Part shown: piece by piece, positions 162-38,206 of the stretch
Layout of the letters: the number at the start of each line of letters is the position of its first letter
Position numbering within the stretch: the first letter of the stretch is position 1
Virus record (IMG/VR): IMGVR_UViG_3300046000_003154
Span: 1-64,000 of that record
Origin: a virus
DNA length: 64,000 bases
Direction: 5' to 3' (one strand)
Position numbers and translations under genes: made by a program
The notes under the pieces: model-generated
What the model saw: the letters and a program-made list of their open reading frames with translations, nothing else
What the model was told of the DNA's origin: nothing
Database searches by the model: none

Positions 162-353
162 ATGACATTACTTATTGGTATTGTTTATTGGTTATATGCG
201 CTAACACAAGCTGTTTTGGTTTGTAGGTCTTTTCATCAAAAAGAAGTTATTTTTGTGTTTTTATTTGCGCTTTTTGCACCAATCATATCAATTCTTATTA
301 TGATTGATTTAACAGGTAAATTTCTTAATTATCTTCTAACGGTTGGGAAATAA
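162..353 (+). CDS. small hydrophobic membrane protein
   Basis: 63-aa ORF, two hydrophobic segments; stop overlaps next ATG (ATGA). Confidence 0.3.
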   Translation: MTLLIGIVYWLYALTQAVLVCRSFHQKEVIFVFLFALFAPIISILIMIDLTGKFLNYLLTVGK

Positions 354-1466: not shown

Positions 1467-1477
1467 TCAAGTATTCG

Positions 1478-1507
1478 TTGACAGTCTTTTTTGAAGCATG
1501 TTATAAT
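1478..1507 (+). promoter_or_regulatory. sigma70-like early promoter (TTGACA-N18-TATAAT) with conserved upstream box ccctacaagtcactcaagtatt
   Basis: TTGACA 1478-1483, TATAAT 1502-1507; module repeated at 3503, 6537, 6894. Confidence 0.6.
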
Positions 1508-1536
1508 TCCTTATCGAAACGAAATCGGAGAATAAA

Positions 1537-2043
1537 ATGACAGTAATGACAGTGATGGAAAAAGTGGAACAAGTCCAAGAAACACTGGCTCGTAAGGGTT
1601 ATCCTATCATTAACATCGATGTGATTGTTAAGACTCTCAGGACAGGGGTGGCTGGTCAAGCATATAACTACAAAGACCAAATCGATATCTCCAAGGAATA
1701 TTTGGAGAAACATCCTGATGAAATTTTTGGTAATACTATTCCTCACGAAATTTGTCATCTGTATGTGCGTCACTATGCCAAGGGATACAAACAAGCCCAC
1801 GGTCCTGAATTTCGGCGTTTCATGGGTCTTTTGGGTCTTGCTGGTGCGACTTATCATTCTATGCCCAGAATTCCCACTGGTGTCGGTAAGACAAAAACTC
1901 GGTTCGTTTACATTACACCAACAGGGCGTAACATAGAATTAACTATTGGTCAACATTTTAAAGCCCAACGTGGTGTTATAATCACAACAAAAGATACAAA
2001 TGAAATTGTGATATTCACTGGAAAACAGGTACAATTCAAGTAA
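1537..2043 (+). CDS. SprT-like zinc metallopeptidase
   Basis: HEICHLYVRH (HExxH) in the SprT-like context TIPHEICHL. Confidence 0.5.
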   Translation: MTVMTVMEKVEQVQETLARKGYPIINIDVIVKTLRTGVAGQAYNYKDQIDISKEYLEKHPDEIFGNTIPHEICHLYVRHYAKGYKQAHGPEFRRFMGLLGLAGATYHSMPRIPTGVGKTKTRFVYITPTGRNIELTIGQHFKAQRGVIITTKDTNEIVIFTGKQVQFK

Positions 2044-2058
2044 CAAAAGGGATTTGAA

Positions 2059-2463
2059 ATGACAACAGAAACAAACTTACCAATGCATCAAGAACTGTAT
2101 GCAATTATCAAAGACCAAGAACTTGAAATTGCACAGTACGAAGTAAATCAGCGGGATCTAGATGCAAAGATTGAATCACTACTAGACGAAGTGGAAATGT
2201 GGAAAGCCACTGCAAATGCGACTGTTGACTTTGAAATGTCAGCACTAAAACAGGAGATTGAAGTACTTACATCAAGGTTGGCAGCGGTGAAAGTCATGTA
2301 CAATGAACAAGCTGATGATCTTGAATCATTAAGCCTTGATGCTGCTCGGTATCGGTGGTTATGTGACAGAGGTTCCAACAGTCTCTGGATAGAATGTGGA
2401 CGCATGGATGCGTGTGACGATGTTGATGCCGCTATTGATGCGGCTATTGAAAGATTAAAATGA
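2059..2463 (+). CDS. hypothetical coiled-coil protein
   Basis: 134-aa ORF, heptad-like acidic sequence. Confidence 0.4.
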   Translation: MTTETNLPMHQELYAIIKDQELEIAQYEVNQRDLDAKIESLLDEVEMWKATANATVDFEMSALKQEIEVLTSRLAAVKVMYNEQADDLESLSLDAARYRWLCDRGSNSLWIECGRMDACDDVDAAIDAAIERLK

Positions 2464-2609
2464 TTGTTATATGTAATGAATGTGGTGAGGAACATAACGT
2501 TGAAGATGTTGAATTTGTTAACGTCGAAGAAAGTATAGAAGGTTTGGACGTTTATTATTTTATCTGTCCTGTCACTGGTCAAGAAACTAATTCTTATGTG
2601 AGGGGATAA
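2460..2609 (+). CDS. small Cys-containing (zinc-ribbon-like) protein
   Basis: 49-aa ORF MIVICNECGEEH...ICPVTG, not in the ORF track (<60 aa); ATG overlaps preceding stop. Confidence 0.3.
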   Translation: MIVICNECGEEHNVEDVEFVNVEESIEGLDVYYFICPVTGQETNSYVRG

Positions 2610-2611
2610 TT

Positions 2612-2809
2612 ATGATTACAATTAAACCTCGTGGAACTCTCAGCATTCTCAGTAATACTTCTAGTGGAATACATTCACATGCTCCATTATTTCCACGACA
2701 GTATGACAAAGCAATCGAAGAATATTATAAATCAATTGAAGAATGTATTAAAAATAGAGAGAAACGTCTAGAAATAACACTTGACAACAATACAAAGACA
2801 TTGTTATAA
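2612..2809 (+). CDS. hypothetical protein
   Basis: 65-aa ORF. Confidence 0.3.
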   Translation: MITIKPRGTLSILSNTSSGIHSHAPLFPRQYDKAIEEYYKSIEECIKNREKRLEITLDNNTKTLL

Positions 2810-3008
2810 TTCGGTGTCTGGAATGATAAGGAATAATATATGAACACTAATAACCCTCTAATAGTCTCTACGAATCCTCTAGAAGACGTTAATGATGATA
2901 CTGGTTACACATTGGATGATCTTGCTAGGGACATTGCTAGTGTCTCTGGTGACGATTATGAATATGATGTGTATAATGAAAATGAAGAATATTTCAAGGA
3001 AGAATAGA

Positions 3009-3323
3009 ATGAAAATAGATCGTAAATTACTACTCGAAACTATTCTTGAAACATCTTTTAACAGATTGTCTAATAAAGAATTAAAAGATTATTATATTGA
3101 TAGTGAAAGACAATATTTTAATGGTCTTGAAGATGATGAATTGTGTGAATATGCTGTTAAAAATGATATCACACTACCTCAATCTATAACAGTATCCAAA
3201 AAAGAATTAATGGAATTATTGTATAAAGTAAACGAAGTCACTAACTATATTACTGCTGATGGTTATGGTCCACAAGGTAAAATAATTAATGCGATTGAAA
3301 AATATATTGATGGATGCGAATAA
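3009..3323 (+). CDS. hypothetical protein
   Basis: ORF 2892..3323 trimmed to the internal ATG (MKIDRK...) with better spacing after the upstream ORF. Confidence 0.3.
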   Translation: MKIDRKLLLETILETSFNRLSNKELKDYYIDSERQYFNGLEDDELCEYAVKNDITLPQSITVSKKELMELLYKVNEVTNYITADGYGPQGKIINAIEKYIDGCE

Positions 3324-3478
3324 TGACACAATTTATTATCGGACTTCTAATGCTTTTCAGTGTATCAGGATCATTTGATGATGCCACTGATGATCAATTG
3401 CCTATGCTCTGGGGCTTTGCGTCTATTGGTATCGTTCTAATGGGTACTTCATCAGTCATTGATCGTAAAAACAAATAA
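3323..3478 (+). CDS. small membrane protein
   Basis: 51-aa ORF MTQFIIGLLMLF..., TAATG overlap with upstream stop. Confidence 0.3.
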   Translation: MTQFIIGLLMLFSVSGSFDDATDDQLPMLWGFASIGIVLMGTSSVIDRKNK

Positions 3479-3502
3479 CCCTACAAGTTACTCAAGTATT
3501 GG

Positions 3503-3532
3503 TTGACAGTCTTTTTGAGACTATGATACAAT
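3503..3532 (+). promoter_or_regulatory. sigma70-like early promoter with extended -10 (TGaTACAAT) and conserved upstream box
   Basis: TTGACA 3503-3508, TACAAT 3527-3532, upstream ccctacaagttactcaagtatt. Confidence 0.55.
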
Positions 3533-3564
3533 CAGTCATCGCAATAAAACTCTGAAAGAAAATC

Positions 3565-3957
3565 ATGGGAACACGCTCACTAACTTATGTGTATAACGAA
3601 AACAATGCTAAATTGCTTTGTATGTATCGGCAATTTGACGGTTATATAAATGGTCATGGAAAAGAGCTAGGTGAGTTCTTGAAAGACCGTGTAGTAGTCA
3701 ATGGTTACAACGAATCATCAAAGAAAATCTCAAATGGTATGGGTTGTCTCGCTGCATCACTTGTATCAAACTTCAAAGATGAAACTGGTGGGATTTACCT
3801 CTTTCCAACAAACACAAAAGATTCTGGACAAGAATTTGAATATCATGTGTACGTTGATAAAGTAGTGGTAAAAACTGTAGGTTCCAAGAAAAAAACAATC
3901 TTCACTGGTTCATGGTACAACTTTAACAAATTCGCCAATGTACCAAATCCCTGCTAA
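3565..3957 (+). CDS. hypothetical protein
   Basis: 130-aa ORF downstream of promoter. Confidence 0.45.
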   Translation: MGTRSLTYVYNENNAKLLCMYRQFDGYINGHGKELGEFLKDRVVVNGYNESSKKISNGMGCLAASLVSNFKDETGGIYLFPTNTKDSGQEFEYHVYVDKVVVKTVGSKKKTIFTGSWYNFNKFANVPNPC

Positions 3958-4142
3958 GAGGCTCACAATGTTCAATCTATCATCACCAATAGCAATCCTA
4001 CCAACAGACTCCAAAAACCTCTCTGTGATCGATCTAGGTCCACGCAAAGGGTATCCTGATGCTGTCACAAAGGAATGCTCAGAACTAGGCACGAAGGTCT
4101 ACACAAAAACTGGATATATTTTCAGAGTCAAAGACCTTACAG

Positions 4143-4172
4143 TTGACAGGGTTTTTGGTATTGATCTATAAT
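4143..4172 (+). promoter_or_regulatory. sigma70-like early promoter
   Basis: TTGACA 4143-4148, TATAAT 4167-4172, followed by conserved leader tcgttatcgcaacaaa. Confidence 0.55.
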
Positions 4173-4202
4173 TCGTTATCGCAACAAAAACTGGAAATCA
4201 AA

Positions 4203-4418
4203 ATGAAGTACCGTCTGATTGTCAATGGAGTTTGTTTTTACTCCACTACCACACAAATAAACAAAGGTGTGGGTGATTTTACGAATGTCAATATTGCAGT
4301 ACAACAATCTCTAACAGCACTCAGGAATATGCAAAAAGGTTCTGGTGCTGCTGATAAAGCCACTGTCGGTTTGAGTGGTACATGGAGTGGTTTCAACGTT
4401 CAAATTAATGAGGCTTAA
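4203..4418 (+). CDS. hypothetical small protein
   Basis: ORF trimmed to ATG 4203 (MKYRLIVNG), downstream of promoter. Confidence 0.35.
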   Translation: MKYRLIVNGVCFYSTTTQINKGVGDFTNVNIAVQQSLTALRNMQKGSGAADKATVGLSGTWSGFNVQINEA

Positions 4419-4420
4419 TC

Positions 4421-4837
4421 ATGGCATACGTTTCTCAAGCTAACAAATTGTCCAAGGCTCCAGCAATCAAGGCTATATTAAAAAAATATGGCATCAAAGG
4501 TTCTCTGGCGATATCCAATCACATGACTCTGGTGCTCAACGTCAAGTCTGGAAGCATTGATTTCATGGAAGACCACTACAACGTTTGTTCTGAAATTCTT
4601 CGTTACTCTAATCCCTATCATGACACCGCACAACGCACATCACATATCAGCGTGAATCCGTACCATTTCGAACGTCAACATAGTGGAACTGCTAGGGACT
4701 TTTTGAGGGAAGTGATTGATGTAATGAACATTGGCAATCATGATGACTCTGATGTTCAAACAGACTATTTCGATGTTGGTTGGTACATTGATGTGAACAT
4801 TGGGAAGTGGAATAAACCTTACATTCTAGTCAAGTAA
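4421..4837 (+). CDS. hypothetical protein
   Basis: 138-aa ORF. Confidence 0.45.
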   Translation: MAYVSQANKLSKAPAIKAILKKYGIKGSLAISNHMTLVLNVKSGSIDFMEDHYNVCSEILRYSNPYHDTAQRTSHISVNPYHFERQHSGTARDFLREVIDVMNIGNHDDSDVQTDYFDVGWYIDVNIGKWNKPYILVK

Positions 4838-4850
4838 TCATTGACAGTCT

Positions 4851-4880
4851 TTTTAGAACTCGTTTATAATTCGTTATCGC
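4851..4880 (+). promoter_or_regulatory. sigma70-like early promoter
   Basis: TTGACA 4851-4856, TATAAT 4875-4880, same leader tcgttatcgcaacaaa as 4173. Confidence 0.55.
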
Positions 4881-4901
4881 AACAAATTCTGAAAGTAAAA
4901 A

Positions 4902-5141
4902 ATGTCTAAAGTCTCCAAGAAAACAGCAATCGAAATCACCAAGATTCTGAATTCTATCGTTGTGTGGAATAAAATTGCATCTGACTCTGAGAAAGAATCT
5001 GGCTCACGCACTGATGCAATGAATTGGCACGATCAGGAAATGGATAAGCTTTCCAAGATTCTCGGAATGGAAGCTGGTGTGAAATTCAACTTTACACCTT
5101 ATATCCCTATGGTTGACAGGGTTAATGCTTCTGCTGTATAA
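4902..5141 (+). CDS. hypothetical protein
   Basis: 79-aa ORF. Confidence 0.4.
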   Translation: MSKVSKKTAIEITKILNSIVVWNKIASDSEKESGSRTDAMNWHDQEMDKLSKILGMEAGVKFNFTPYIPMVDRVNASAV

Positions 5142-5243
5142 TTCAAGTACACCAAGCAAAAGGAGAAAAGAAAACGAAAACTTCCTCTAACTGACCTAGA
5201 GTATATCGGTCAGTGAGTATGGTAAGCAAGTAACAAAAAGAAC

Positions 5244-5273
5244 TTGCAAACCTCTCAAAAAGTGTGTTAGAAT
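5244..5273 (+). promoter_or_regulatory. sigma70-like promoter (TTGCAA-N18-TGtTAGAAT)
   Basis: TTGCAA 5244-5249, TAGAAT 5268-5273 with TG at 5265-5266. Confidence 0.4.
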
Positions 5274-5312
5274 TCATGTGTCGGTTAATTAAACTCTAAA
5301 AGGAAATTTAAA

Positions 5313-5633
5313 ATGTCTAAGGCAAATGTGGTTGGTGGTTCTGTTGTTGTTTTGAACAAGCGCGAAGTCGCTAAGACTCTTGTGAACATTCAACGTGGAC
5401 GCATCTTCACGGCATATTTTGTGTCTAAGGTTGATGGTACTTCTCGCCGTGTGAATGGACGTATGGGTGTCACAAAGTACCTCAAAGGTGAAAACAACGT
5501 GAACAATGCTGCTGGTCATCCTGATCTACTTACTACCTTTGCGATGGGTGACAAACTCGCTTATCGTAACATCGTTTTGGATTCCATCACCGAAATTCGT
5601 GCTGGTGGTAATCGTTACAAGTTCGAAGGATAA
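5313..5633 (+). CDS. hypothetical protein
   Basis: 106-aa ORF. Confidence 0.45.
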   Translation: MSKANVVGGSVVVLNKREVAKTLVNIQRGRIFTAYFVSKVDGTSRRVNGRMGVTKYLKGENNVNNAAGHPDLLTTFAMGDKLAYRNIVLDSITEIRAGGNRYKFEG

Positions 5634-5711
5634 TCTGTCTATTATCTTGGACAAATGATCGATATACTGAGCATTTGTCCAGAATAAGAAACACTTTAAA
5701 AGAAAATCAAA

Positions 5712-5897
5712 ATGGTTCCAAAAGAATTTATAAACGAAAATATTCAGTTTCAATGTGTACAGATATTAACTCTGGCACACAATCTTGAAATTGAAAATAT
5801 TGATAATTGGGTTGTTGCCAGTTATTGTATCGACGCACCTTGGTATCTTCCATCTGGGTGTGTTTCTAGTGGCTATGTACACAATACACGAGATTAA
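5712..5897 (+). CDS. small protein, paralog of 8712..8936
   Basis: shared motif NW(V/L)..SYC(I/L)DAP with ORF 8712..8936. Confidence 0.35.
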   Translation: MVPKEFINENIQFQCVQILTLAHNLEIENIDNWVVASYCIDAPWYLPSGCVSSGYVHNTRD

Positions 5898-6099
5898 TAT
5901 GCAAACTACTAAAAATACTCCAGAGAAAATGAACAAGAAAAAAGAAAAGCGTTACGAATACGAGGATTTGATTCGACTCAAGAAGTTTAATAAACCTAAA
6001 CATACAGACAAGAAACGTCAACAATAAATTTTACTGAGTTGATCAAAAAACAACAGTCATAAAAAACTCTTGCAAATCCTTTGAGGATCGTCTACATTA

Positions 6100-6516
6100 A
6101 TGGCTGGACAACAAATTAATCAGGAAACCGAAATGAACAAGTCTTTCGTACCAGTTGAATTCACAGCAATGTCAGACATTTGTGTAGTTGGATACAATTC
6201 TGAGAATGCTGATTGTGTTAACCCTAAAGGCGCAATTTACGGGTATCAGGTCTATATTCAGGCAGATAGTGAGTACGGTGACACTCGCATCATGTACGTT
6301 GGCGAACCCACTATGGACGGTGACAATGCCACGTTAAAGGCACAAAAACAGGCTGATGCTATGATGGCACGTTGGAACAATTTTAAGAAGCTCCCAATCA
6401 ATTTTGGTGCTTGGGTTGAGGGTAGAGCGGTGTATGGTTCAGATGCTTATCAGGCATATGGTCAAGATGATGAATTGGCACTTGAAATGCGCGAAGAAGA
6501 AGAAAGCTGGTATTAA
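6100..6516 (+). CDS. hypothetical acidic protein
   Basis: 138-aa ORF. Confidence 0.45.
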   Translation: MAGQQINQETEMNKSFVPVEFTAMSDICVVGYNSENADCVNPKGAIYGYQVYIQADSEYGDTRIMYVGEPTMDGDNATLKAQKQADAMMARWNNFKKLPINFGAWVEGRAVYGSDAYQAYGQDDELALEMREEEESWY

Positions 6517-6536
6517 CCCTACGAATCACTTGGGTA

Positions 6537-6566
6537 TTGACAACAAAGCCAATACCCGCTTATAAT
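6537..6566 (+). promoter_or_regulatory. sigma70-like early promoter with conserved upstream box ccctacgaatcacttgggtat
   Basis: TTGACA 6537-6542, TATAAT 6561-6566. Confidence 0.55.
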
Positions 6567-6600
6567 CCTAGTGTCGCAGCAAAACTCTGGAAGAAACAAA

Positions 6601-6870
6601 ATGTACGTTATTTACAATATCGAATCTACAAAGATTATTCGTAAAGCCCAATATGATGTTGGATATGCTTCAATTGGTGCTGCAAAAGCTGCCATGACTC
6701 GCAACAAAATTGACAAGAATACTCACACAATCTCTGAATACACTCACTTTTTCACCAACATCGAAAAGACCGAAACCCGCAAGAATTTCATGTCTGGAAA
6801 AGAATTTGAAACAAGCGTGAATTCTAACTATACAACGTGTCCAAGTTCTGAAACGTACTGGTCAACGTAA
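6601..6870 (+). CDS. hypothetical protein
   Basis: ORF trimmed to ATG 6601 (MYVIYN). Confidence 0.4.
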   Translation: MYVIYNIESTKIIRKAQYDVGYASIGAAKAAMTRNKIDKNTHTISEYTHFFTNIEKTETRKNFMSGKEFETSVNSNYTTCPSSETYWST

Positions 6871-6893
6871 TAACCCTACGAATCACTTGGGTA

Positions 6894-6923
6894 TTGACAG
6901 TAAGATCAAAAGTGTGTCATAAT
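6894..6923 (+). promoter_or_regulatory. sigma70-like early promoter, extended -10 TGtCATAAT
   Basis: TTGACA 6894-6899, CATAAT 6918-6923; upstream box identical to the 6515 copy. Confidence 0.55.
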
Positions 6924-6956
6924 TCAGTCACCGAAACAAATCACTGAAAGCTCCAA

Positions 6957-8132
6957 ATGTCCTCTTATCTGATCCCTGCTCAAAACGTCGAATCCCTCAA
7001 AGCACAATTCGCAACATTGGTCAAGAAGGCAATCAAGGTTTCTGCTGAGTTGCCTACACTGATCATTGGTGTTGTTCAGATGGTAGAAAAGAAGGATGAT
7101 AACGGCAATAAATTCTTTGCTGAATACTTTCCCGTTGAAGTCACTGGAACTGCTCCAAAACTCTCTGGATGGACGTTTAACGGTACATTAGAGACATTAG
7201 AAGGTACTGACAAGACAATCGTTCGTTCTATCCCTGATGCTCCTATTCCTGATCGTTTTCGTTACGTCAATGCATCCAATTGTGACCATTGTGGTGTCAA
7301 TCGTTTCCGTCTTGCTACCTTTGTGGTGTCCAATGGTACTGAATATAAACAAGTTGGACGTTCATGCTTGAAGGATTTCTTGGGTCATGCTAATCCTGAT
7401 CAAATAGCATCCTATGCACAATATCTGTCATCAATGGATTTTGGTGGATTTGAGAATGAATCTGGCGGTTATGTTGATCCATTGTTTGAAACAGTGAATA
7501 TTCTGAGTGCTGCCGTGAATCTGATTAAAGCTGTTGGATATCGCAAGTCTGAATATGAAAACTCTACTAAGGGTGACATTATTTCCCATTTGTTGGCTAA
7601 GAAACAATCGGAACGTCTTGATATTACTGCTGATGATATTGCCACTGCTGAATTGATTAATGCATGGTTGATCACAAAGTCTGGATCTGAATTCTGGGAT
7701 AACCTCTCTGCATATGCTGGCGAAGAGTATGTCAAGCACAAAGCCATTGGATATCTTGCTGCTGGTGCGATGATGTACCTAAAAGAAGTGGAAGCAATCA
7801 AAGTATTCCAATCAAAGAAGGACGGTATCTCTAATGACCCAATCGCTCCAATTGATACCAAGGTCAAGGTAGAAGGAATTGTGGTGTCTGCTCATCGTTT
7901 TGAACGTGCTGCATACCATTATGGCGACTCTGGTATCTCTCAGGTTCTGGTGATCAAGACCAACGACAATAAACTGATCAAAATGTTCTCTGCCAATCTG
8001 AATATCACTCAAGACTCTACTGTTACAATTTCTGGAAAGATTGGTAACATTCAAACAGAAACATTTGAGAAAAGCCCATTCAAGGGTTGTAATATCACCA
8101 CAATGGCTCCACGTTCACGCATCACTATTTAA
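6957..8132 (+). CDS. hypothetical protein (391 aa)
   Basis: long early ORF, no recognisable motif. Confidence 0.5.
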   Translation: MSSYLIPAQNVESLKAQFATLVKKAIKVSAELPTLIIGVVQMVEKKDDNGNKFFAEYFPVEVTGTAPKLSGWTFNGTLETLEGTDKTIVRSIPDAPIPDRFRYVNASNCDHCGVNRFRLATFVVSNGTEYKQVGRSCLKDFLGHANPDQIASYAQYLSSMDFGGFENESGGYVDPLFETVNILSAAVNLIKAVGYRKSEYENSTKGDIISHLLAKKQSERLDITADDIATAELINAWLITKSGSEFWDNLSAYAGEEYVKHKAIGYLAAGAMMYLKEVEAIKVFQSKKDGISNDPIAPIDTKVKVEGIVVSAHRFERAAYHYGDSGISQVLVIKTNDNKLIKMFSANLNITQDSTVTISGKIGNIQTETFEKSPFKGCNITTMAPRSRITI

Positions 8133-8243
8133 TCATGGAAAACAATATGAAACGTTCTGATATATTTCTGATAATCGCTAATATTCTCTTTTGGTTTGGT
8201 ATTCTCCCCTTCATGGCATATATTAAATAAAGGTATATTAAAA

Positions 8244-8462
8244 ATGAAACACTTTAAAAACTTGTCGGATGACCAATTGATGGAAGAGTACAGGACCATC
8301 AGGAAAGAAATGATAACAATTCGCAATATCAATCCAATGACATTAAATTTCGCCTGTATGTATTTGAACGTCACCACTGAACTGATTGACCGTGGCATTA
8401 CCATACAGGAAAGCAAAGATGGTATATGGCGATTTTTGAGTGATAAACAGGCATCAACATAG
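8244..8462 (+). CDS. hypothetical protein
   Basis: ORF trimmed to ATG 8244 preceded by ggtatattaaaaATG context (repeated at 8461). Confidence 0.3.
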   Translation: MKHFKNLSDDQLMEEYRTIRKEMITIRNINPMTLNFACMYLNVTTELIDRGITIQESKDGIWRFLSDKQAST

Positions 8463-8472
8463 TATATTAAAA

Positions 8473-8715
8473 ATGATTAATATTAAAAAAGTAATAACAG
8501 TTCGTGTGATATACAAATCAGGATATGCACACAATTTTGATGTATATTCAATTAAATTTGAGGATAACGGTAGAGTGATACGATGGACTCCCACAAATGA
8601 TTCTGGTCCATTAATGCTTGGAATTGATAACATTGAAGCTGTTTATTACATCAAACACAAATACAATATCGTCCTTGCTGATTGGGTGAATAAACTACTG
8701 AGAATCTCACAATGA
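8473..8715 (+). CDS. hypothetical protein
   Basis: ATG 8473 in the same gtatattaaaaATG context. Confidence 0.35.
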   Translation: MINIKKVITVRVIYKSGYAHNFDVYSIKFEDNGRVIRWTPTNDSGPLMLGIDNIEAVYYIKHKYNIVLADWVNKLLRISQ

Positions 8716-8936
8716 AACAAAATAAAATAGAAACCCTCAGATATATCATTGGGGATCACGTAGCATTTACTGTTCACAATGCTATTATCATGTCCCGTTG
8801 CGGAATCATGGAACGCTCTAAGGATGAAGTACAAAACTGGCTTGATGTATCCTATTGTCTTGATGCTCCAATCCTAACACCAACAGGATCTAACTCTAAA
8901 GCACATGGTAGATTCATGATCAATTATCACCGTTAG
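8712..8936 (+). CDS. small protein, paralog of 5712..5897
   Basis: QNWLDVSYCLDAP motif. Confidence 0.35.
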   Translation: MKQNKIETLRYIIGDHVAFTVHNAIIMSRCGIMERSKDEVQNWLDVSYCLDAPILTPTGSNSKAHGRFMINYHR

Positions 8937-8944
8937 AGAATCAT

Positions 8945-9118
8945 ATGGAAAAAATTAATATCACTCTGAAAATGCAATGTGAGGACTGTGGACATATTCA
9001 AACTGTCAAGGGTTTTCTGACAAGTGATGGAGGATATTATTTTGGTAGTGCATATTCTTATTGTGATGAATGTGATGGATTACCAAACCCCATAGAAGAA
9101 CCAAAACAAATAGAATAA
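8945..9118 (+). CDS. small zinc-ribbon protein
   Basis: 57-aa ORF with CEDCG...CDECDG (two CxxC pairs); not in ORF track. Confidence 0.35.
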   Translation: MEKINITLKMQCEDCGHIQTVKGFLTSDGGYYFGSAYSYCDECDGLPNPIEEPKQIE

Positions 9119-9141
9119 AACAATCCAATAAACACCACAAA

Positions 9142-9170
9142 AGCCTGACTTCAAACATCAGGCTTTTTGT
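9142..9170 (+). terminator. rho-independent terminator
   Basis: agcctga-cttcaaaca-tcaggct followed by TTTTTG. Confidence 0.55.
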
Positions 9171-9179
9171 ACTCGCTTT

Positions 9180-10638
9180 AGCTTGTACTTTCATATCATC
9201 AAACAGTAATGATTCTCAATAAACACATTCAATAAAACGCTCTACAAGGCATCAATAGACTATTCATGTAGGGTAGCATAGGATAGAACAAAACAACGTA
9301 AGGAAGACCCCATAGAAACGATTTAATAGGGGATAGAGAATCAGTAGGACAATCACTGAAATTTATCTGTAGCTTCGCTGAGAATCACTGAGAATCGCTG
9401 AGAATAAATGTGATAATTTCCCATTTATATTGGACTACTGTGGGACCATTGAAAACCATTGAGAATGTTTTGAGAATCTTTGGTATTTTTTATTACTCTC
9501 TGGTATTCTCTGAGACTCTCTGTTCACTTTCTGTACTGATCAGTCTATATTATTACCAGACAGTATCAGATCACTTCCAGATCCACTCCAAGAACTCTCC
9601 AAGGTTTCTCCCACCTACCACAAATAATCCTCCATGTCAATTCTGATGATCCTCTGATGATCCTCTGTGGCTTCGCTGATATCCACCCAGATCCCTACCA
9701 CAAACAGATCCAGAAGTCAACCAGAACCACATCCAGAACCAGATATCCAGAACCAGAACGAGATCCAGAACCACTATCATAACCATAGCACCCACACCAT
9801 ACCCAGAGCGGCATCCAGCCTATAATGCGTTTTTGAACATTATTACTTGTGTGGTCATGTAGGGTAGGTAGGGTATCTGTAAATATGTGTTTTTATGCTC
9901 TGTAAGTCCTTGATTTATAAGGCTTTTTTTCTGCGTTTTTTCATTATTTTGCGTAATGCCTTTCTGATGATTCTCTGAGGCTTATCTGATGATCCTTGAC
10001 AGACCTTTGATTGTATGATAGGAATCTCTGAGGGTATCTGTGCATCCTTATATAATTGTCTGCTTATATGCTGATGGACTTATGAATGATTCTCTAACAT
10101 ATCTCTGAGGATTTGTCAAGTGTTTTCTGTTGACTCGCTGATAGGATTCGCAGAGGGTTTCCGAATGCCTTCCTAGCACGTTTTGGAGGATTTGTCAAGT
10201 GTTTTCCGAGGGTTTGAAAATAAATAAAAATATATTTGTTTGTTGCGAAAATGGTCGATACTGGAGTGAAATAGTCGGGAAATGCTTGACAGGGGGCCAA
10301 AAAGAGTGTATGGAAGGGTGGTCGGGAGTCCTCTGGGTGGGGCTAAGAATCCTTTGAGCCTCAAATCATTCTCAAAAAATTTTCTAGAACGAAAACCAAA
10401 TCATTCTCAAATTTTTTTCTAATATACCCTCTAACGAAGTCTCTATGGATTTTCTGATAAGCCTCAAATTTTCCCCTACAAAAAGTCTCTAAAAAATTTT
10501 CCCAGAAATTTTTACAGTGGAAATAGACGCCCATAGAGGACAAGCTAAAGCGAGTCCATAAAAAATCCCCTGAGAATTAACTGAGGGGATTCTGGGAGTC
10601 TCTGATGACCTTCTGATGATTCTGTAATGGTATGGGAA
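9180..10638. repeat. gene-free region rich in short degenerate direct repeats (iteron-like)
   Basis: ctgagaatc x3 at 9378-9410; ccagaacc x5 at 9720-9775; ctgatga(t/c)cctctg repeats; ggatttgtcaagtgttttc duplicated at 10108 and 10183. Confidence 0.5.
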
Positions 10639-11334
10639 TTAGACCACACACACTTCTAGAGGTTGCCAAAGATTCACTACTGGCATGATTGGTTTCTCTA
10701 TTACTGGAACAACGGTTTCTTTATCCCCATGATTCGCAAATTCGCCATGATGTTCGTTTCTGAGAGATATAACTTTTGCTTCTGCTTCTTCTAGAGTATC
10801 ATAACACCCTCCCCATATCATCTTATTATTGACACCAACGTTTACACAAAATTTTCCTTTTCTCATGAACACTCCTTTGACACCAGTTTTATTGTTTTTT
10901 GCTGTTTTTCTATTATAAGAATTTTGTGTGTTTGTCGCTAGTCTTAAATTTTTTAATATGGTATTTCTTGGATTGTTGTCATCATGATCGATCACGAAAC
11001 CTTTTTGTGGGAAGCTACCATAAACATACAACCAAATTAAATTATGATTTTTGTATGTGTTATATTCTAGAGTAATTCTTCTATATCCTTTTATGTCTTC
11101 GGAACCAGCATGATCCCCAAAATATACTCCGCATCCTTTTGGTGGATTCTTCCAAGTCAACAAACCTGTCTCTGGATCGTAATTAAAGAAGTATCTGACT
11201 TTTTCCTGAGTGAGTATTGGTTTGATCTTGCCCAACCTGTACTGCACGATATCAATGGCTTTCTGCACAACCTCTGATGACCCACTGACACTATCTAATG
11301 CTTCTTTGATCGTTTCAAGTTCTTCTTTGTCCAT
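10639..11334 (-). CDS. HNH homing endonuclease with AP2 DNA-binding domain
   Basis: GFVIDHDDNNPRNTILKNLRLATNTQN (HNH) and GVKGVF...WGGCYDTLEEA (AP2-like). Confidence 0.75.
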   Translation of the reverse strand: MDKEELETIKEALDSVSGSSEVVQKAIDIVQYRLGKIKPILTQEKVRYFFNYDPETGLLTWKNPPKGCGVYFGDHAGSEDIKGYRRITLEYNTYKNHNLIWLYVYGSFPQKGFVIDHDDNNPRNTILKNLRLATNTQNSYNRKTAKNNKTGVKGVFMRKGKFCVNVGVNNKMIWGGCYDTLEEAEAKVISLRNEHHGEFANHGDKETVVPVIEKPIMPVVNLWQPLEVCVV

Positions 11335-11439
11335 ACACTCTCCTAGAGTTATAAAGGTATCATTTTACATCTTAAATCGATCATTGTCAACTTTATGTAC
11401 GATTTATACAACATTAATGAAAATAGTTGAAAATAGTAC

Positions 11440-11468
11440 TTGACAAGGTTTTTTCATGGTGTTAGAAT
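11440..11468 (+). promoter_or_regulatory. sigma70-like promoter (TTGACA-N17-TAGAAT)
   Basis: TTGACA 11440-11445, TAGAAT 11463-11468. Confidence 0.45.
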
Positions 11469-11508
11469 TCAGGTGTTCCGCTTTGATAATATTTAATTAT
11501 TAGATTGT

Positions 11509-11516
11509 TATAAATA
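11509..11516 (+). promoter_or_regulatory. T4-type late promoter box TATAAATA
   Basis: exact TATAAATA about 30 nt upstream of ATG 11546, ahead of the internal-protein operon. Confidence 0.4.
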
Positions 11517-11545
11517 GTCTCTAGAAGAATAACTAAAACAATAAT

Positions 11546-11749
11546 ATGTGTACAATTAAAACAATGAAGAATATAGAGAACACAATGATTCTATTATGGA
11601 TCGCAATATGGATAACATGTATTACAATCATTCCACATGAAATAATACATTTTATACTTGCTATCATTGCTGGTATTAAATTTTCTGAATGGATGATGAA
11701 ACTAACCCAAATGGTAATATACAAATATGACAAATATAAAAACGTTTAA
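11546..11749 (+). CDS. small membrane protein
   Basis: 67-aa hydrophobic ORF. Confidence 0.3.
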   Translation: MCTIKTMKNIENTMILLWIAIWITCITIIPHEIIHFILAIIAGIKFSEWMMKLTQMVIYKYDKYKNV

Positions 11750-12401
11750 AGAATTTATTTCTGAGGAAGAACGTGTAAATGCTTCTGGAAGAACTCAAGT
11801 AGCAACCACTGGAGGAACTTATGAGAAAACTGGAAAGTTCCTCAAAGATAAGCTACCACCAAAGGCTAAGATTGTTTCTATTGGTGCTGGTCTAGATCAT
11901 ACTCGTAAGGCACTCCATACAGGTCTAGGAGAAAATTCTGGTCATACTGTACACGATATGGAACCTAATCCAGAAGGACGTAAAGAAGCACCAGAATATA
12001 CCAAGGGTGAAGACATTCCTAAGAACCACTATCATGCTGCTGTTTCTCATAATGTCTTGAATGTTGTAGAACCCCATGTAAGAGAACATGTAATGCATTC
12101 TATATTCCATTCTGTTAAAGAAGGTGGTCATGCAGTTATTGGTACTCGTAAATGGAAGGGTGATATTGAGAAGAATAAAAATAGTATTCCCGGTGATGAA
12201 CCAAAGAGTATGTGGGTTAAGCGTAAGAAAAAAGGTGGTGGAGAAGAAACTTCATACCAAAAGGGATTTGATGGAAATGAACTCAAAGACTATGTTGAAG
12301 ATTACGCCAAGAGACATGGACACGAAGTAGAAGTCCATAAAGTACCTCTAGCAGCTTCTGGTGTTCATGTGCATATTAAAAAGAAAAATGAAAAGCTTTA
12401 A
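11727..12401 (+). CDS. putative internal head protein with T4-like capsid-targeting N-terminus
   Basis: N-terminus MTNIKTFKEFISEEE resembles the T4 IP capsid-targeting signal MKTYQEFIAE with an (L/I)xE protease site; first of four translationally coupled genes. Confidence 0.5.
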   Translation: MTNIKTFKEFISEEERVNASGRTQVATTGGTYEKTGKFLKDKLPPKAKIVSIGAGLDHTRKALHTGLGENSGHTVHDMEPNPEGRKEAPEYTKGEDIPKNHYHAAVSHNVLNVVEPHVREHVMHSIFHSVKEGGHAVIGTRKWKGDIEKNKNSIPGDEPKSMWVKRKKKGGGEETSYQKGFDGNELKDYVEDYAKRHGHEVEVHKVPLAASGVHVHIKKKNEKL

Positions 12402-12726: not shown

Positions 12727-13205
12727 TGAAAACCTTTAAAGATTTCCTAAATGAAGAAAAATCTGTAGGTAAGAAAATGGGACACGATCTATACGTCCAC
12801 AAAGACTATGCTGAGAACCATCCAGACATTCCCCATGAAGGACTCCAAAAAGCCAAGAGTCACCTTCCTAAAGATTTTGATTACACTGCTGTTAAATATA
12901 ATAAAAAAGAAGGTTCTCATTCTTTTATTCATTCTCCAGACTTTGACACTGCTGACGAACCAACTGTAGGAAAATCTATTAAAGTTCATGCATCAGGAGA
13001 AACAAAGGTAAACAATCCTCCAAAAGATCCTCTAATCTGGCATGGAAAACATCAATGGGTTAAAGATGATCATAAAGGATTTGATGTAGAAAAATCTAAA
13101 GAACGTCATAAACATTGGAAGTCTGTTCTTGGTGTTAATAAAGATGTGTCAAGCAGAATTGGTCGTAAATCATATTGGGACAAATGGACTAAAGAAAACC
13201 TATGA
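12726..13205 (+). CDS. putative internal head protein (CTS family)
   Basis: N-terminus MKTFKDFLNEEK; ATGA overlaps with neighbours. Confidence 0.5.
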   Translation: MKTFKDFLNEEKSVGKKMGHDLYVHKDYAENHPDIPHEGLQKAKSHLPKDFDYTAVKYNKKEGSHSFIHSPDFDTADEPTVGKSIKVHASGETKVNNPPKDPLIWHGKHQWVKDDHKGFDVEKSKERHKHWKSVLGVNKDVSSRIGRKSYWDKWTKENL

Positions 13206-14110
13206 AGTCATTTAAAGATTATAATAAAGAAAAAGAATCCAAGAAAATTCCAACACTTTCTTGGGACTCTTCTTTTGCCGAACAAAGACCAAAAGGTAAA
13301 AAAAGAGAATCAGTGTTATCATGGGATTCTGCCTTTGCTGATGTTCGTGATAAGAAACCAATCAAAGAAGCAAAAGAGAAATTTAATTTAGATACTTCAT
13401 ACAAATCGCATGAATCACAAGGTTTCAATAAAGTTGGTTGTTCATATGACGAAAATTTTCATGGACATTCTCAAGTAAAACCTCAAAGTTTAACCAAAGA
13501 ACATGAAAATGCTATTAGACATTATTCAGAGGATTCTTCTGGTAACGATGAACATGGACACGCATCTTCTGGTAATATGAATGCATGGTTAAGAAATAAA
13601 GAAGGTGATGGAAAACAAAATATTCGTGGTAAACATGATCCAAAGAATGTTGAAAAATCTGTCAAGAAATTATCATCTGCTTTTACTCGTGAAAATACCA
13701 ACCGCAAACCATTAACGACATATGGTGGAGTTCCAGAACACATTGGAAATAAATTAGAGAATAGTGGAAAAGGTGCTGAACATCATTTAGCTGGATTCAC
13801 ATCAACATCATCTTCTGTTCGTACTGCTAAACATTTTGCTCGTACCTATAATGGTCGTGATAATTCTAAAGTGCATCACATAGTAAAATATGATGTAAAG
13901 CCTCATGCTGGATTATCTATAGCAGGACATTCAACCTATCCAGAAAATGAAGTAATGTTGCATCATGGGGCTAAAGTCAAATATTCTCATACAACAGAAC
14001 ATGATGATGGTGAAGATGGAACTATTAAAGTGCATCATGTTACTGTATCACCAAGACATAAGAAATTGTCAGAATATGGTGAATATCACGATACTTCAAA
14101 TTTTTCTTGA
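13202..14110 (+). CDS. ADP-ribosyltransferase with capsid-targeting N-terminus (Alt-like)
   Basis: N-terminus MKSFKDYNKEKE; R ... GFTSTSSS (STS motif) ... ENEVML (ExE motif) = R-S-E ART signature. Confidence 0.55.
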   Translation: MKSFKDYNKEKESKKIPTLSWDSSFAEQRPKGKKRESVLSWDSAFADVRDKKPIKEAKEKFNLDTSYKSHESQGFNKVGCSYDENFHGHSQVKPQSLTKEHENAIRHYSEDSSGNDEHGHASSGNMNAWLRNKEGDGKQNIRGKHDPKNVEKSVKKLSSAFTRENTNRKPLTTYGGVPEHIGNKLENSGKGAEHHLAGFTSTSSSVRTAKHFARTYNGRDNSKVHHIVKYDVKPHAGLSIAGHSTYPENEVMLHHGAKVKYSHTTEHDDGEDGTIKVHHVTVSPRHKKLSEYGEYHDTSNFS

Positions 14111-14135
14111 CAATTCTCTAAAAATTCTCTAAAAT
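14107..14135 (+). promoter_or_regulatory. sigma70-like promoter (TTGACA-N17-TAAAAT)
   Basis: TTGACA 14107-14112, TAAAAT 14130-14135. Confidence 0.4.
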
Positions 14136-14167
14136 CCCTCTAACTAAAAACTAGAGGGATTTTTTAT
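14136..14167 (+). terminator. rho-independent terminator after the ART gene
   Basis: ccctcta-actaaaaac-tagaggg followed by ATTTTTTAT. Confidence 0.55.
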
Positions 14168-14651
14168 GAATATCTTTGTTGTGCATCCAGATCCTATTGT
14201 TTCTGCTCAGATGCTAAATGATAAACACGTAGTAAAAATGATCTTAGAAAGTGCTCAGATTCTTTCTACTGTCAATTTTAAAAATAATAAAAAAGCTACT
14301 TATAAACCAACGCATCACAATCACCCATGTACGCTTTGGGCTGGTAAGACTGTGGATAACTACAACTGGTTAAAACAACATGGAATTGCTCTTTGTGAGG
14401 AATATACCAACAGATACAAGAAAATTCATAAAAGTATGCAATATTACTTTACAGAATACAATATTCCTGATACAATTAAAGACATTGGATTAACAGAATT
14501 CGTCCAAGCAATGCCAGAACAGTATCGTGACATTAATCCTGTGTTGGCATATCGTAAGTATTATATTGGTGAAAAGTCTGGATTTTCTAAGTGGACAAAC
14601 AGAGAAATTCCTAGTTGGTTTGAGTACAGAAATATTGAAATGGAGATGTAA
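14166..14651 (+). CDS. pyrimidine-dimer DNA glycosylase (denV / endonuclease V)-like
   Basis: N-terminal IFVVHPDPIVSAQML and C-terminal AYRKYYIGEK resemble T4 DenV (INLTLVSELADQHL ... WYKYYGKA) as recalled from memory. Confidence 0.45.
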   Translation: MNIFVVHPDPIVSAQMLNDKHVVKMILESAQILSTVNFKNNKKATYKPTHHNHPCTLWAGKTVDNYNWLKQHGIALCEEYTNRYKKIHKSMQYYFTEYNIPDTIKDIGLTEFVQAMPEQYRDINPVLAYRKYYIGEKSGFSKWTNREIPSWFEYRNIEMEM

Positions 14652-14652
14652 A

Positions 14653-15051
14653 ATGACAAGAAAGAAAACTAAATGTCATAATGAATCATGCAACAATTTA
14701 TCTTTTGGTTTTTTATGTAGACCTTGTGACTTAGAACGAAGAAAAAAACCTTATACAAGACAAGAATATTGTAGAGAATGGAATCTTAATAAAAAATATG
14801 GTTTAGACTCTTCTGGATTTGATGTTTTATGGATTGCTTTTAGGGGGAAATGCGGAATATGCGACAAAATTTTAAAAATGCCTGAATATAAAAGAGGGCA
14901 ATCTTTAGATGTAGCTGCTATTGATCATGATCATAAAACTGGAAATATTAGAGGTTTATTATGTAATTCATGTAATAAAGGTATTGGACATTTTTACGAT
15001 GACGTAAATATTTTAAAAAATGCTATTAATTGGTTGGAGAAACAAAAATGA
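14653..15051 (+). CDS. endonuclease VII-like (HNH family) nuclease
   Basis: AIDHDHKTGNIRGLLCNSCNKGIGHF matches the T4 gp49 EndoVII motif DHDHxTGxxRGLLCxxCN; N-terminal CHNESC...CRPC. Confidence 0.65.
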   Translation: MTRKKTKCHNESCNNLSFGFLCRPCDLERRKKPYTRQEYCREWNLNKKYGLDSSGFDVLWIAFRGKCGICDKILKMPEYKRGQSLDVAAIDHDHKTGNIRGLLCNSCNKGIGHFYDDVNILKNAINWLEKQK

Positions 15052-16097
15052 GAAAATTAGCTACAATTAGGAAAATTTCAAATATCATTAGTATTCCAGA
15101 TGCAGATAAAATTTGCACATATGTTGTTGATGGATGGACTATTGTTGATAATGTTGGAAAATATCAAATTGACGAATTAGTTATTATGATAGAAATAGAT
15201 TCATGGATTCCAACAGAACTTGCTCCATTTCTTTCTAAGGGCAAAGAACCTCGTGAATATAATGGTGTCAAAGGTGAAAAACTAAGAACCATTAGACTAC
15301 GCAAGCAACTCTCACAAGGGTTGATTCTTCCATTGAAAGTTCTGATTAAATCACATGGTAAAGATTCTTTTAGTAGCACAGTTCCGTATGTAGAAGATAA
15401 TGATGTAACTGAATTTCTAGGAATTCAAAAGTGGGAAGCACCAATTAATGCTCAACTTGCTGGTCTTGTTCGTGGTAACTTTCCTTCTCTTGTCCCAAAG
15501 ACAGATCAAGAGCGTATTCAGAATCTAAAAAATGAATTAGATCAATGGACAAACAATGAAAACTTTACATGGGAAATATCTGAGAAACTTGAAGGATCAT
15601 CTTGTACCATGTATATTGATGACGAAGGTGAATTCCATGTTTGTTCTCGTAATCTAGACTTAAAGAAAGATGAAAATAATTCTTTCTGGAAAGTTGCTAT
15701 AGATAATAAAATAGAACAAAAGATGAAGGATGCTGGTCTAATGGGATATGCACTTCAAGGTGAATTAGTAGGTGCTGGTATTCAAGGTAACATATACGAA
15801 ATGCAAGATCAACGTTTCTATGTTTATGATATATACGATACGCACAAGGGGGAATTTATTAAGCCTTTGTATGTAAGAGTTTTATGTCAAGAAATGGGAA
15901 TTAATCATGTCCCTATTATGGATGTTGCATTCGTTATTGATAAGACTATGAGCCAAATGTTAGATTTTGCTGATGGTCAGTCTGTAATGGGTCTAATTGG
16001 ATGCTTGCGAGAAGGTTTAGTATTCAAGTGTAATGAATATGGTGGACCAAGTTTTAAAGTAATATCTAATAAGTATCTATTAGGAGTTAAGGATTAA
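15048..16097 (+). CDS. RNA ligase-like nucleotidyltransferase
   Basis: N-terminus MRKLATIRKI; candidate motif I KLEGSS (KxxG); ATGA overlap with EndoVII gene. Confidence 0.45.
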   Translation: MRKLATIRKISNIISIPDADKICTYVVDGWTIVDNVGKYQIDELVIMIEIDSWIPTELAPFLSKGKEPREYNGVKGEKLRTIRLRKQLSQGLILPLKVLIKSHGKDSFSSTVPYVEDNDVTEFLGIQKWEAPINAQLAGLVRGNFPSLVPKTDQERIQNLKNELDQWTNNENFTWEISEKLEGSSCTMYIDDEGEFHVCSRNLDLKKDENNSFWKVAIDNKIEQKMKDAGLMGYALQGELVGAGIQGNIYEMQDQRFYVYDIYDTHKGEFIKPLYVRVLCQEMGINHVPIMDVAFVIDKTMSQMLDFADGQSVMGLIGCLREGLVFKCNEYGGPSFKVISNKYLLGVKD

Positions 16098-38200: not shown

Positions 38201-38206
38201 CTAAGA

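Follow-up and report, generated by a model that had tools for sequence, protein, structure and literature searches.

A lineage-specific, non-coding island of phased short repeats in an uncultured T4-like phage: a tentative candidate for a replication origin

Introduction

Few known genomes are packed as tightly as those of T4-like phages, and outside T4 itself their origins of replication are poorly defined. A 64,000-nt stretch of one such genome (IMG/VR record IMGVR_UViG_3300046000_003154, positions 1 to 64,000; hereafter the window, in whose coordinates all positions are given) is almost without gaps apart from a ~1.4-kb island, which an earlier note, made from the letters alone, had described at 9180-10638 as gene-free, dense in repeats and typical of a replication origin, a packaging or terminus region or a regulatory RNA locus. 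What is such an island, and what might it do in a genome of this kind? The island is non-coding DNA unlike ordinary intergenic DNA and is lineage-specific; it is real, statistically robust and unusual, and it is best placed among the repeat-rich, cis-acting non-coding phage regions of an already known kind. As to its role, we tentatively favor a cis-acting platform, insulated from transcription, on which protein binds cooperatively; a replication origin confined to this lineage is its most plausible form. If this is true, the island offers a rare testable candidate origin in an uncultured phage, or a protein-titrating or nucleoprotein-organizing DNA element; if instead it is DNA that decayed within a region of high gene turnover (a hyperplastic region), it illustrates how large a load of 'dead' regulatory sequence these genomes tolerate.

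Non-coding status and boundaries of the island

The island is gene-free, as the earlier note had it: no open reading frame (ORF) of 9180-10638 matches PHROGs or Pfam, and in a second, independent assembly of this phage (Logan contig SRR35487358_14609) the gene caller leaves a gap between a 57-residue gene and the HNH gene. The second assembly is 100% identical over 18 kb and continuous through the island, and since the island is thus read through in two assemblies, it is not an artefact of one assembler. Period-3 power in the island is 0.36, against a mean of 7.9 and a minimum of 0.34 in background windows; this minimal value, together with the lack of a PHROGs or Pfam match for any ORF, rules out a pseudogene or frameshifted gene.

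Both flanks named in the earlier note were recovered (Table 1). The early-operon terminator at the left edge is a bidirectional hairpin that closes a long plus-strand block of small early genes, and the minus-strand gene at the right is a free-standing homing-endonuclease gene of the HNH_3 family. Because the hairpin at 10564-10591 is the HNH gene's own terminator, the right limit of the island was moved from 10638 to ~10560. Each edge thus carries an inward-facing terminator, so that transcription from either side is stopped at the island edge. Immediately past each terminator lies one arm of a perfect 16-nt inverted repeat that extends to 26 nt at 88%, the 16-mer having only two copies in 64 kb. 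Inside the island, the 3' half and tail of a terminator-like hairpin resemble the left terminator with its repeat arm (9157-9179 versus 9917-9939, 74%).

Inverted repeats placed precisely at both edges would also be expected of a non-autonomous element of the miniature inverted-repeat transposable element (MITE) type, with TG...CA termini (TGTACTCGCTTTAGCTTGT ... ACAAGCTAAAGCGAGTCCA), inserted in a neutral gap between converging terminators. A GC content above the genome mean, absence from relatives and the adjoining mobile HNH gene are all consistent with such an insertion. However, neither a target-site duplication nor any direct repeat flanking the arms was found, there is no second copy in 64 kb, the eight matches of the 16-mer arm in IMG/VR are unrelated and at chance level, the island ORFs include no transposase remnant, and 1.38 kb is long for a MITE. 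We therefore consider a MITE-like origin highly improbable.

Phased repeat arrays

The density of repeats claimed in the earlier note is far above chance. Lag-10/11 autocorrelation of the island is 0.37, against 0.282 ± 0.028, and in a repeat analysis across all 64 kb the ten best 600-nt windows for 10/11-nt autocorrelation all fell within 9001-10700. Four-mers that recur at +10 to +12 nt, most commonly TCTG, CTGA, CTCT and CAGA, number 128 in the island versus 37 ± 10 in other windows (maximum 67) and 27 ± 6 in block shuffles. The repeat TCTGATGA is present in 6 copies (0.07 expected) and CTGAGAAT in 4. At least nine arrays can be delimited, each with 4-8 units of 10-12 nt, for a total of ~45-50 units (Table 1); the last of them, array H, overlaps the HNH terminator and extends to the HNH stop codon. 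Within the units, a TCTGA/CWGA core (TCTGA, CTGAG/CTGAT, CAGA or TTGA) is constant while the other 5-7 nt vary. The arrays are also polar, with 21 occurrences of CTGA versus 3 of TCAG and 9 of CTGAG versus 0 of CTCAG (0.6 and 0.4 expected), and a second motif, GAGAAT/ATTCTC, occurs 13 times in both orientations where ~1.4 copies would be expected.

Some of the individual repeats listed earlier needed amendment. The nonamer ctgagaatc, reported three times, is exact at 9378 and 9388, the third copy (9398) being ctgagaata; ccagaacc, reported five times at a period of ~12 bp, is exact four times, the shorter ccagaac occurring five times at spacings of 12, 14, 6 and 12 nt; and ctgatga(t/c)c, reported at both edges, is not confined to them (9643, 9654, 9964, 9986, 10602 and 10613). 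A higher-order unit of ~300 nt was considered and rejected, similarity between segments being weak and local (z ~3-4).

Unidirectional repeats at helical-turn spacing look like the signature of cis-acting protein-binding arrays. Cooperative binding on one face of the helix is suggested because the units measure one helical turn in nine arrays, keep their core while the spacers vary, and share a uniform orientation; slippage alone is disfavored because units of any length, decaying evenly, would be expected from it.

Table 1. Positions of the island's boundary elements, repeat arrays and promoter-like elements, with the neighboring HNH gene and the T4-type replication genes of the window
Feature	Position	Strand	Details
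Left boundary, bidirectional intrinsic terminator with T-run	9139-9172	+	Hairpin 9139-9167; -12.6 kcal/mol, z = -4.4 (+); -17.3 kcal/mol, z = -4.7 (-)
Left arm of perfect 16-nt inverted repeat	9171-9186	+	ACTCGCTTTAGCTTGT; 2 nt past left terminator T-run
Array A	9356-9408	+	5 units at 10-11 nt: CTGAAATTTAT CTGTAGCTTCG CTGAGAATCA CTGAGAATCG CTGAGAATAAA; TRF period 10
Array B	9438-9481	+	4 units: CTGTGGGACCA TTGAAAACCA TTGAGAATGTT TTGAGAATCTT
Array C	9497-9541	+	4 units: TCTCTGGTAT/TCTCTGAGAC/TCTCTGTTCA...; leads into palindrome TGATCA 9537-9542
Array D	9557-9610	+	5 units: CAGACAGTAT CAGATCACTTC CAGATCCACTC CAAGAACTCTC CAAGGTTTCTC
Bipartite TTGACA-N17-TAGG	9614-9640	-	Paired with 9694-9720 copy; common TTTGTGGTAGG
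Array E	9642-9700	+	TCTGATGATCC twice, then CTGTGGCTTCG CTGATATCCACC CAGATCCCTACC; period 11, 100%
Bipartite TTGACT-N17-TAGG	9694-9720	-	Common TTTGTGGTAGG with 9614-9640
Array F	9705-9790	+	CCAGAAC(C) units at 6/12/14 nt; plus strand C-rich, G-poor
Internal terminator-like hairpin with U7	9897-9930	+	-8.4 kcal/mol, z = -2.7
Array G	9963-10048	+	~8 units: TCTGATGATTC TCTGAGGCTTA TCTGATGATCC TTGACAGACCT ... CTGAGGGTAT CTGTGCATCC
Bipartite TTGACA-N17-TAGG(AA)	9996-10022	+
Bipartite GAAAACACTTGACA-N17-TAGA(GA)	10093-10127	-	Element 10093-10119; includes 19-mer copy 1 (10109-10127)
Further array	10105-10160		Phased 10-12-nt units
Bipartite GAAAACACTTGACA-N17-TAGG(AA)	10172-10206	-	Element 10172-10198; includes 19-mer copy 2 (10188-10206)
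Long imperfect inverted repeat/hairpin	10188-10297		-34.8 kcal/mol, z = -4.5; 0/200 shuffles as good
Bipartite GGAAATGCTTGACA-N17-TATG(GA)	10286-10312	+
G-cluster	10316-10342	+	GGGTGGTCGGGAGTCCTCTGGGTGGGG; resembles R-loop-initiation or G-quadruplex motif
AT-rich segment	10357-10512	+	Five AnTn tracts; 25-nt direct repeat CAAATCATTCTCAAA... at 10362-10386 and 10397-10421; lag-11 = 0.40
Right arm of perfect 16-nt inverted repeat	10540-10555	-	4 nt past T-run of HNH terminator
Right boundary, intrinsic terminator of HNH gene	10556-10591	-	Hairpin 10564-10591, then U6 on minus strand; -16.4 kcal/mol
Array H	10570-10630	+	6 units: CTGAGAATTAA CTGAGGGGATT CTGGGAGTCT CTGATGACCTT CTGATGATT CTGTAATGG
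HNH_3 homing-endonuclease gene, free-standing; neighbor, outside island	10639-11334	-	phrog_99, 2.9e-60; PF13392
RNase H	33357-34205		T4-type replication gene
gp59 N-domain	41744-42334		T4-type helicase loader
gp32	42892-43782		T4-type replication gene

Bipartite promoter-like elements and the central module

Six TTGAC(A/T)-N17-TA(G/T)(G/A) elements are clustered inside the island over a span of 700 nt; they are six of the 13 matches that this bipartite pattern has in the 64-kb window, versus 2.6 ± 1.5 in Markov-1 simulations. All six have a spacer of exactly 17 nt, and the -35 hexamer is TTGACA in five and TTGACT in one; the -10 position is occupied by TAGGAA, TAGAGA, TAGGTG, TAGGGA or TATGGA, none of them a usable -10 box. 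The 19-bp duplication of the earlier note is part of this set: its two copies exist (10109 and 10188) at a spacing of 79 nt start to start instead of the 75 bp given, and, read on the opposite strand, the 19-mer is GAAAACACTTGACAAATCC, which forms the -35 module in two bipartite elements. Exact matches to the 19-mer occur in seven unrelated IMG/VR contigs as ordinary promoters, with a TATAAT or CATAAT box 17 nt downstream in at least three of the seven (L001, L003 and L005) and a similar AT-rich box in L007; the copy in L006 is apparently within coding sequence.

The -35 modules of the diverging elements at 10172-10206 and 10286-10312 pair with each other in a long hairpin with an AT-rich centre (10214-10245). 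To the right of this central hairpin are a G-cluster, a triple-G-run motif with just one other instance when both strands of the 64 kb are counted, and an AT-rich segment with AnTn tracts (Table 1). A TGCTT-like box at 10283-10289 was examined as a MotA site and rejected on spacing: by inspection it sits 19 nt from the nearest -10-like hexamer, and in T4 middle promoters the distance between MotA box and -10 is ~13 nt.

Composition and predicted RNAs

The island was said earlier to be less AT-rich than its surroundings. This holds against the window as a whole (GC 0.391 versus a mean of 0.331, placing the island in the top 4% of windows), but the 4 kb just upstream is also at 0.382. GC skew changes sign across the island, from -0.35 over 9450-9750 to +0.36 over 10050-10350, so that RNAs transcribed outward from about the centre would be rich in G where the skew is strong (9450-9900 and 10050-10350). 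Nine GATC sites are found within 456 bp. Fold z-scores are ~0 over most of the length, no significant RNA structure was predicted in the island outside the terminators and one hairpin, and the plus-strand RNA of 9700-9819 is predicted to be almost structure-free (-0.8 kcal/mol, z = +2.2). A covariance-model scan with Rfam 15 gave no match in the island at E<=1 or at gathering thresholds, and nothing above E = 0.4 in 8800-11800, which rules out a known RNA family as its identity.

These results bear on the possibility that the island specifies one or more non-coding RNAs, which could titrate an RNA-binding protein in the manner of a sponge or form a spacer on which Rho loads. One candidate would be a ~0.5-kb, C-rich, unstructured plus-strand RNA running from an extended -10-like TGTGATAAT (9408-9417) to the correctly oriented internal terminator at 9897-9930, with the almost structure-free, C-rich stretch 9540-9830 resembling a Rho-utilization (rut) site; the other would be a G-rich leftward RNA from the TTGACA elements with 16 GGA and 11 GGAU motifs, these being in excess on the minus strand (GGA 16 versus 3.3 ± 2.1; GGAT 11 versus 1.1 ± 1.1). 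Against both candidates stand the lack of an Rfam family and of further significant structure, the promoter-like sites, which are not enriched and are all weak, and the 10-12-nt phasing, which belongs to the DNA helix and not to RNA. A CsrA sponge was rejected because the predicted fold leaves most GGA motifs paired, in contrast to those of CsrB-type sponge RNAs, and a hammerhead or C/D-box reading of CUGAUGA found no Rfam support. A non-coding RNA is accordingly an unlikely explanation, and a regulatory RNA is the least supported of the three roles proposed in the earlier note.

The source phage and its early region

The window derives from a distant T4-like myovirus. Baseplate genes gp5, gp6, gp7, gp8, gp25-like and gp48/54-like are located at 48-63 kb, and gp6 has its best matches in Methylophilales phage Melnitz, pelagimyophages and cyanomyophages, at an identity of only 35-38%. 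A tmRNA gene of the beta-type/permuted form (38158-38554, plus strand; Rfam beta_tmRNA 92.8 bits with a gathering score of 84, tmRNA_permuted 103.9 bits; not reported by ARAGORN) has a PD-(D/E)XK nuclease gene on one side and gp59 on the other, an arrangement shared with Melnitz, and the whole order PhoH, PD-(D/E)XK nuclease, tmRNA, gp59, gp32 is that of Melnitz. Because the gene order, including the position of the tmRNA, matches that of a Methylophilales phage, the host is likely a betaproteobacterium, possibly a Methylophilales-like one.

The island lies inside a long block of tiny plus-strand orphan genes that occupies 1-9118 of the window and at least 9.6 kb beyond its start (contig L046), more than 19 kb in total, and comprises ~55-60 tiny co-oriented genes with almost no family matches. 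Perfect TTGACA-18-TATAAT promoters occur in this block at 1478, 2781, 4143, 4841, 5113 and 6537 and near-perfect ones at 3503 and 6894; the 18-nt spacer, constant across these promoters, is unusual. A separate promoter, TTGACA-17-TAAAAT at 11390-11362, belongs to the HNH_3 gene. Shortly past the island, a run of plus-strand genes (13202-16097) encodes an Alt-like ADP-ribosyltransferase (PF03496), a pyrimidine-dimer excision enzyme of the DenV kind, endonuclease VII and an RNA ligase.

Elsewhere in the window, 21-22 tRNA genes are found at 20-31 kb, the 22nd of which (27017-27088, plus strand) was detected with Rfam at 46.8 bits and missed by ARAGORN. Within the tRNA cluster is a gene for a 473-residue DUF2828/DUF7788 protein (28869-30290, plus strand), assigned to PHROG 850, which is labelled 'RNA-binding protein', and possibly Ro/TROVE-like.

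Comparative searches

Megablast and blastn searches of the island against 50,697 phage records returned no match. Exact-pattern scans gave one chance match for TCTGATGATYCTCTGAKG, inside a primase-helicase gene, and none for CTGAGAATCNCTGAGAATC. By way of the flanking genes, a 391-residue gene (43-48% identity) and a 224-residue methyltransferase-like gene (67-89%), we traced ~25 metagenomic loci in related phages, none of which has the same neighbors or a comparable island; in Melnitz no comparable island is present in the first 50 kb, the corresponding part being tightly packed. Exact look-ups of the 57-residue and HNH proteins returned the same phage only (the source contig and the identical Logan contig). 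Since it is absent from all relatives found, the island is lineage-specific, and in none of these relatives does it have a coding counterpart. The 224-residue protein itself (11727-12401, plus strand) has a weak Methyltransf_23 match and is conserved at 60-89% identity across many uncultured T4-like phages, with a different neighborhood in each.

Arrays of a similar build do occur in other viruses. When four TCTGA cores set exactly 11 nt apart were sought, 68 viral contigs were retrieved, where <1 was expected by chance. Phage contig L076 has TCTGAGAATTG/TCTGAGAGTTG units with inverted ATTCTCAGGAA units, and CTGAGAAT/CTGAGAGT units in both orientations. About 12 AT-rich contigs (L065, L068, L077, L093, L095, L096, L102, L107, L113, L115, L125 and L127, of which L065 alone was read) carry a conserved four-unit array, TCTGAAAWATT TCTGAAATAAT TCTGAAATCCT TCTGAATTTTT, with variable spacers; in L065 the array (6745-6790) falls between genes, ~60 nt beyond a bidirectional terminator hairpin, and the four-unit array of this family is probably a regulator binding site. 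Phased TCTGA-core arrays thus appear to recur in viruses, from which neither common descent nor common function follows. A separate scan for CTGATGATYC dimers retrieved the GC-rich contigs L053 and L055, one array near relaxase genes (L052) and chance matches; as these may be unrelated minisatellites, they were not taken as homology evidence. In L053 and L055, JGI metagenome contigs with a GC content of 0.63, one-orientation CTGATG(G/A)C... arrays of 11-12 nt repeatedly interrupt a class I fumarate hydratase-like gene and other coding segments, and look like intron-like or insertion-like repeat blocks of a GC-rich organism.

A lineage-specific island in an orphan-gene block could also be a non-functional relic of a hyperplastic region, consisting of dead promoters, terminator fragments and slippage-born minisatellites left after gene loss. 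The early region of T4-like phages turns over through recombination of PeSL terminator/promoter cassettes (PMC4122927) and homing-endonuclease traffic, and headful packaging gives slack. This explanation accounts for several features: the island sits within >19 kb of tiny orphan genes beside a mobile HNH gene, its -35 modules are identical to those of real promoters elsewhere and have no -10 boxes, a degenerate version of the left terminator with its box lies within it, it is absent from all relatives found, and plain 11-mer minisatellites are common in viral contigs. Yet random decay should also have hit the -35 hexamers and their spacing, whereas five of six hexamers are TTGACA, the other is TTGACT, and all six spacers are N17. 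Unit lengths confined to the helical repeat around a conserved core with varying spacers, one-orientation polarity across 1.4 kb and a perfect inverted repeat precisely at both edges are likewise not what decay would leave, and 1.4 kb of junk would be unusual in an otherwise almost gapless genome. We regard a relic as the leading alternative, possible and only slightly less probable than the reading favored here.

A possible protein-binding platform and replication origin

The preferred interpretation, an insulated platform for cooperative protein binding, would work as follows. Many copies of a sequence-specific DNA-binding protein would bind on one helix face and assemble a wrapped or filamentous nucleoprotein complex, which the two inward terminators, each with its identical 16-nt box, would insulate from outside transcription. 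The central module, comprising the two diverging TTGACA elements, the AT-rich spacer, the G-cluster to the right, a left segment with a G-rich leftward transcript, and the AnTn tracts, would then open or form an R-loop, where gp59 would load the helicase of a T4-type replisome. The T4 helicase loader gp59 acts on R-loops and forks, and this phage encodes gp59 as well as gp32 and RNase H. A T4-type R-loop origin would call for an active promoter with a transcript retained as an R-loop across an unwinding element downstream; the six TTGAC(A/T)-N17 elements here have TAGG, TAGA or TATG where the -10 box should be, and both a G-cluster and a skew toward G-rich RNA are present. The direct repeats expected of an iteron origin are present and phased but measure 10-12 nt and are degenerate. 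The anatomy of the island, its statistics, its insulation by terminators and the T4-type replication genes are observed; protein binding to the arrays and replication initiation as the outcome are inferred.

A number of observations weigh against this interpretation. No initiator (Rep), ribbon-helix-helix (RHH) or helix-turn-helix family match was found among the neighboring and larger ORFs scanned, DnaA boxes (TTWTNCACA) are absent from 8500-11500, and IHF consensus sites are not enriched, with one only. Because all six TTGAC(A/T) elements are without a usable -10, priming transcripts are doubtful. Cumulative GC skew, which the earlier note had suggested as a check, carries no signal at the island, and the island lies between co-directional gene blocks and not at a strand switch. 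The arrays are mutually out of phase over 1.4 kb, with Fourier power at 10.8 nt ~2 standard deviations above background, and the best AT-rich 60-mer (AT 0.78) ranks no higher than the top 5% of the window, unexceptional for an AT-rich genome. Most of the 68 viral contigs with TCTGA arrays hold plain 11-mer minisatellites. Absence from every relative found argues against a conserved or ancient essential element; an origin is not thereby disfavored, because those of T4 are themselves lineage-specific and have no motif in common (PMC3016281).

On balance, the earlier view that this is not ordinary intergenic DNA stands, while the three roles proposed with it are not decisively separated; a replication-origin role is compatible with the data and unproven. 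In a stronger form, which we think unlikely, the island would be a dedicated, insulated 'landing pad' for a large, helically wrapped nucleoprotein complex, and phage cis-elements would gain a new class. It might be an origin driven by iterons, in a family credited with R-loop or recombination initiation alone, or else a decoy array. The decoy could use its ~45-50 TCTGA/GAGAAT sites to titrate a DNA-binding regulator of the host, or its TTGACA elements, each a -35 box only, to trap host RNA polymerase.

Comparison with known systems

At the left end of phage T5, small plus-strand early genes are followed by a terminator, ~1.5-1.7 kb of non-coding sequence in which direct and inverted repeats form a 'bewildering array', and converging minus-strand genes (bioRxiv 10.1101/866236). 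The T5 injection-stop region (iss, or Repeat Region 3) resembles the island in being a ~1.5-kb non-coding stretch that follows small early genes, transcribed by host RNA polymerase, and a terminator, and in having HNH genes in or beside it. The parallel raises the possibility of a signal for packaging or a terminus, placed where the first-expressed genes end, be it a pac site for the small terminase subunit, a direct-terminal-repeat boundary or a T5-like injection-stop region. Helically phased short repeats would suit such a signal, as small terminase subunits wrap DNA with repeats of this kind at the SPP1 pac site. T4-like genomes, in contrast, are circularly permuted and without fixed ends, and because the structural and replication genes place this phage with T4 and the Kyanoviridae, a packaging or terminus role is unlikely; T5, a siphovirus, has terminal repeats and fixed genome ends, its injection-stop region being located within a long terminal repeat at a set distance from the left end, whereas the island of this T4-like myovirus lies at least 27 kb from any contig end, with at least 27 kb of contig upstream and two assemblies passing through it unbroken. 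The T5 region also has eight DnaA/DnaA* boxes in pairs, within the 131-bp inverted repeats IRC/IRD, and irregularly spaced 15-mers with no 10-11-nt phasing; the largest inverted repeats of the island measure 16-34 nt, paired DnaA boxes are absent, and a comparison with T5 9100-11000 revealed no sequence similarity. The injection-stop region was therefore rejected as the identity of the island despite the parallel layout, and a packaging or terminus signal of any kind is improbable.

PeSL cassettes are similar to the island in juxtaposing terminator hairpins and sigma-70-type TTGACA modules in an orphan-rich early region, and a -35 module common to unrelated phages is a PeSL-like trait. They are, however, ~50-70 bp long, functional and flank genes, whereas the modules of the island are without -10 boxes and have no genes between them, and the phased TCTGA arrays are left unexplained by PeSLs.

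The phasing also recalls that of type II partition centromeres. In parC of plasmid R1, tandem 10-11-bp repeats in one orientation and in helical phase are bound by ParR, and such RHH-bound arrays give rise to a superhelical protein-DNA filament. By analogy, the phased one-orientation units of the island could be organized in a similar way, although the island exceeds parC several-fold in length, is more heterogeneous and belongs to a virulent T4-like phage with no obvious need for partition; no ParR, ParM or ParA gene was recognized among the neighboring and larger ORFs scanned.

Origins of the iteron, PLE and oriE types provide the remaining comparison. Classical iterons are 17-22 bp long, few in number and accompanied by an adjacent initiator gene and often by DnaA boxes, in contrast to the short units and many arrays found here, and the evenly spaced 12-nt repeats of T4 oriE (PMC3016281) lie inside the coding sequence of gene 5, unlike the non-coding island. 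A 2.7-kb repeat-bearing non-coding region is, on the other hand, the proven origin of the satellite PLE (PMC7145576). What the island has in common with origins of these types is the combination of evenly spaced clusters of direct repeats next to AT-rich DNA and promoter-like elements, in a non-coding part of a mobile genome.

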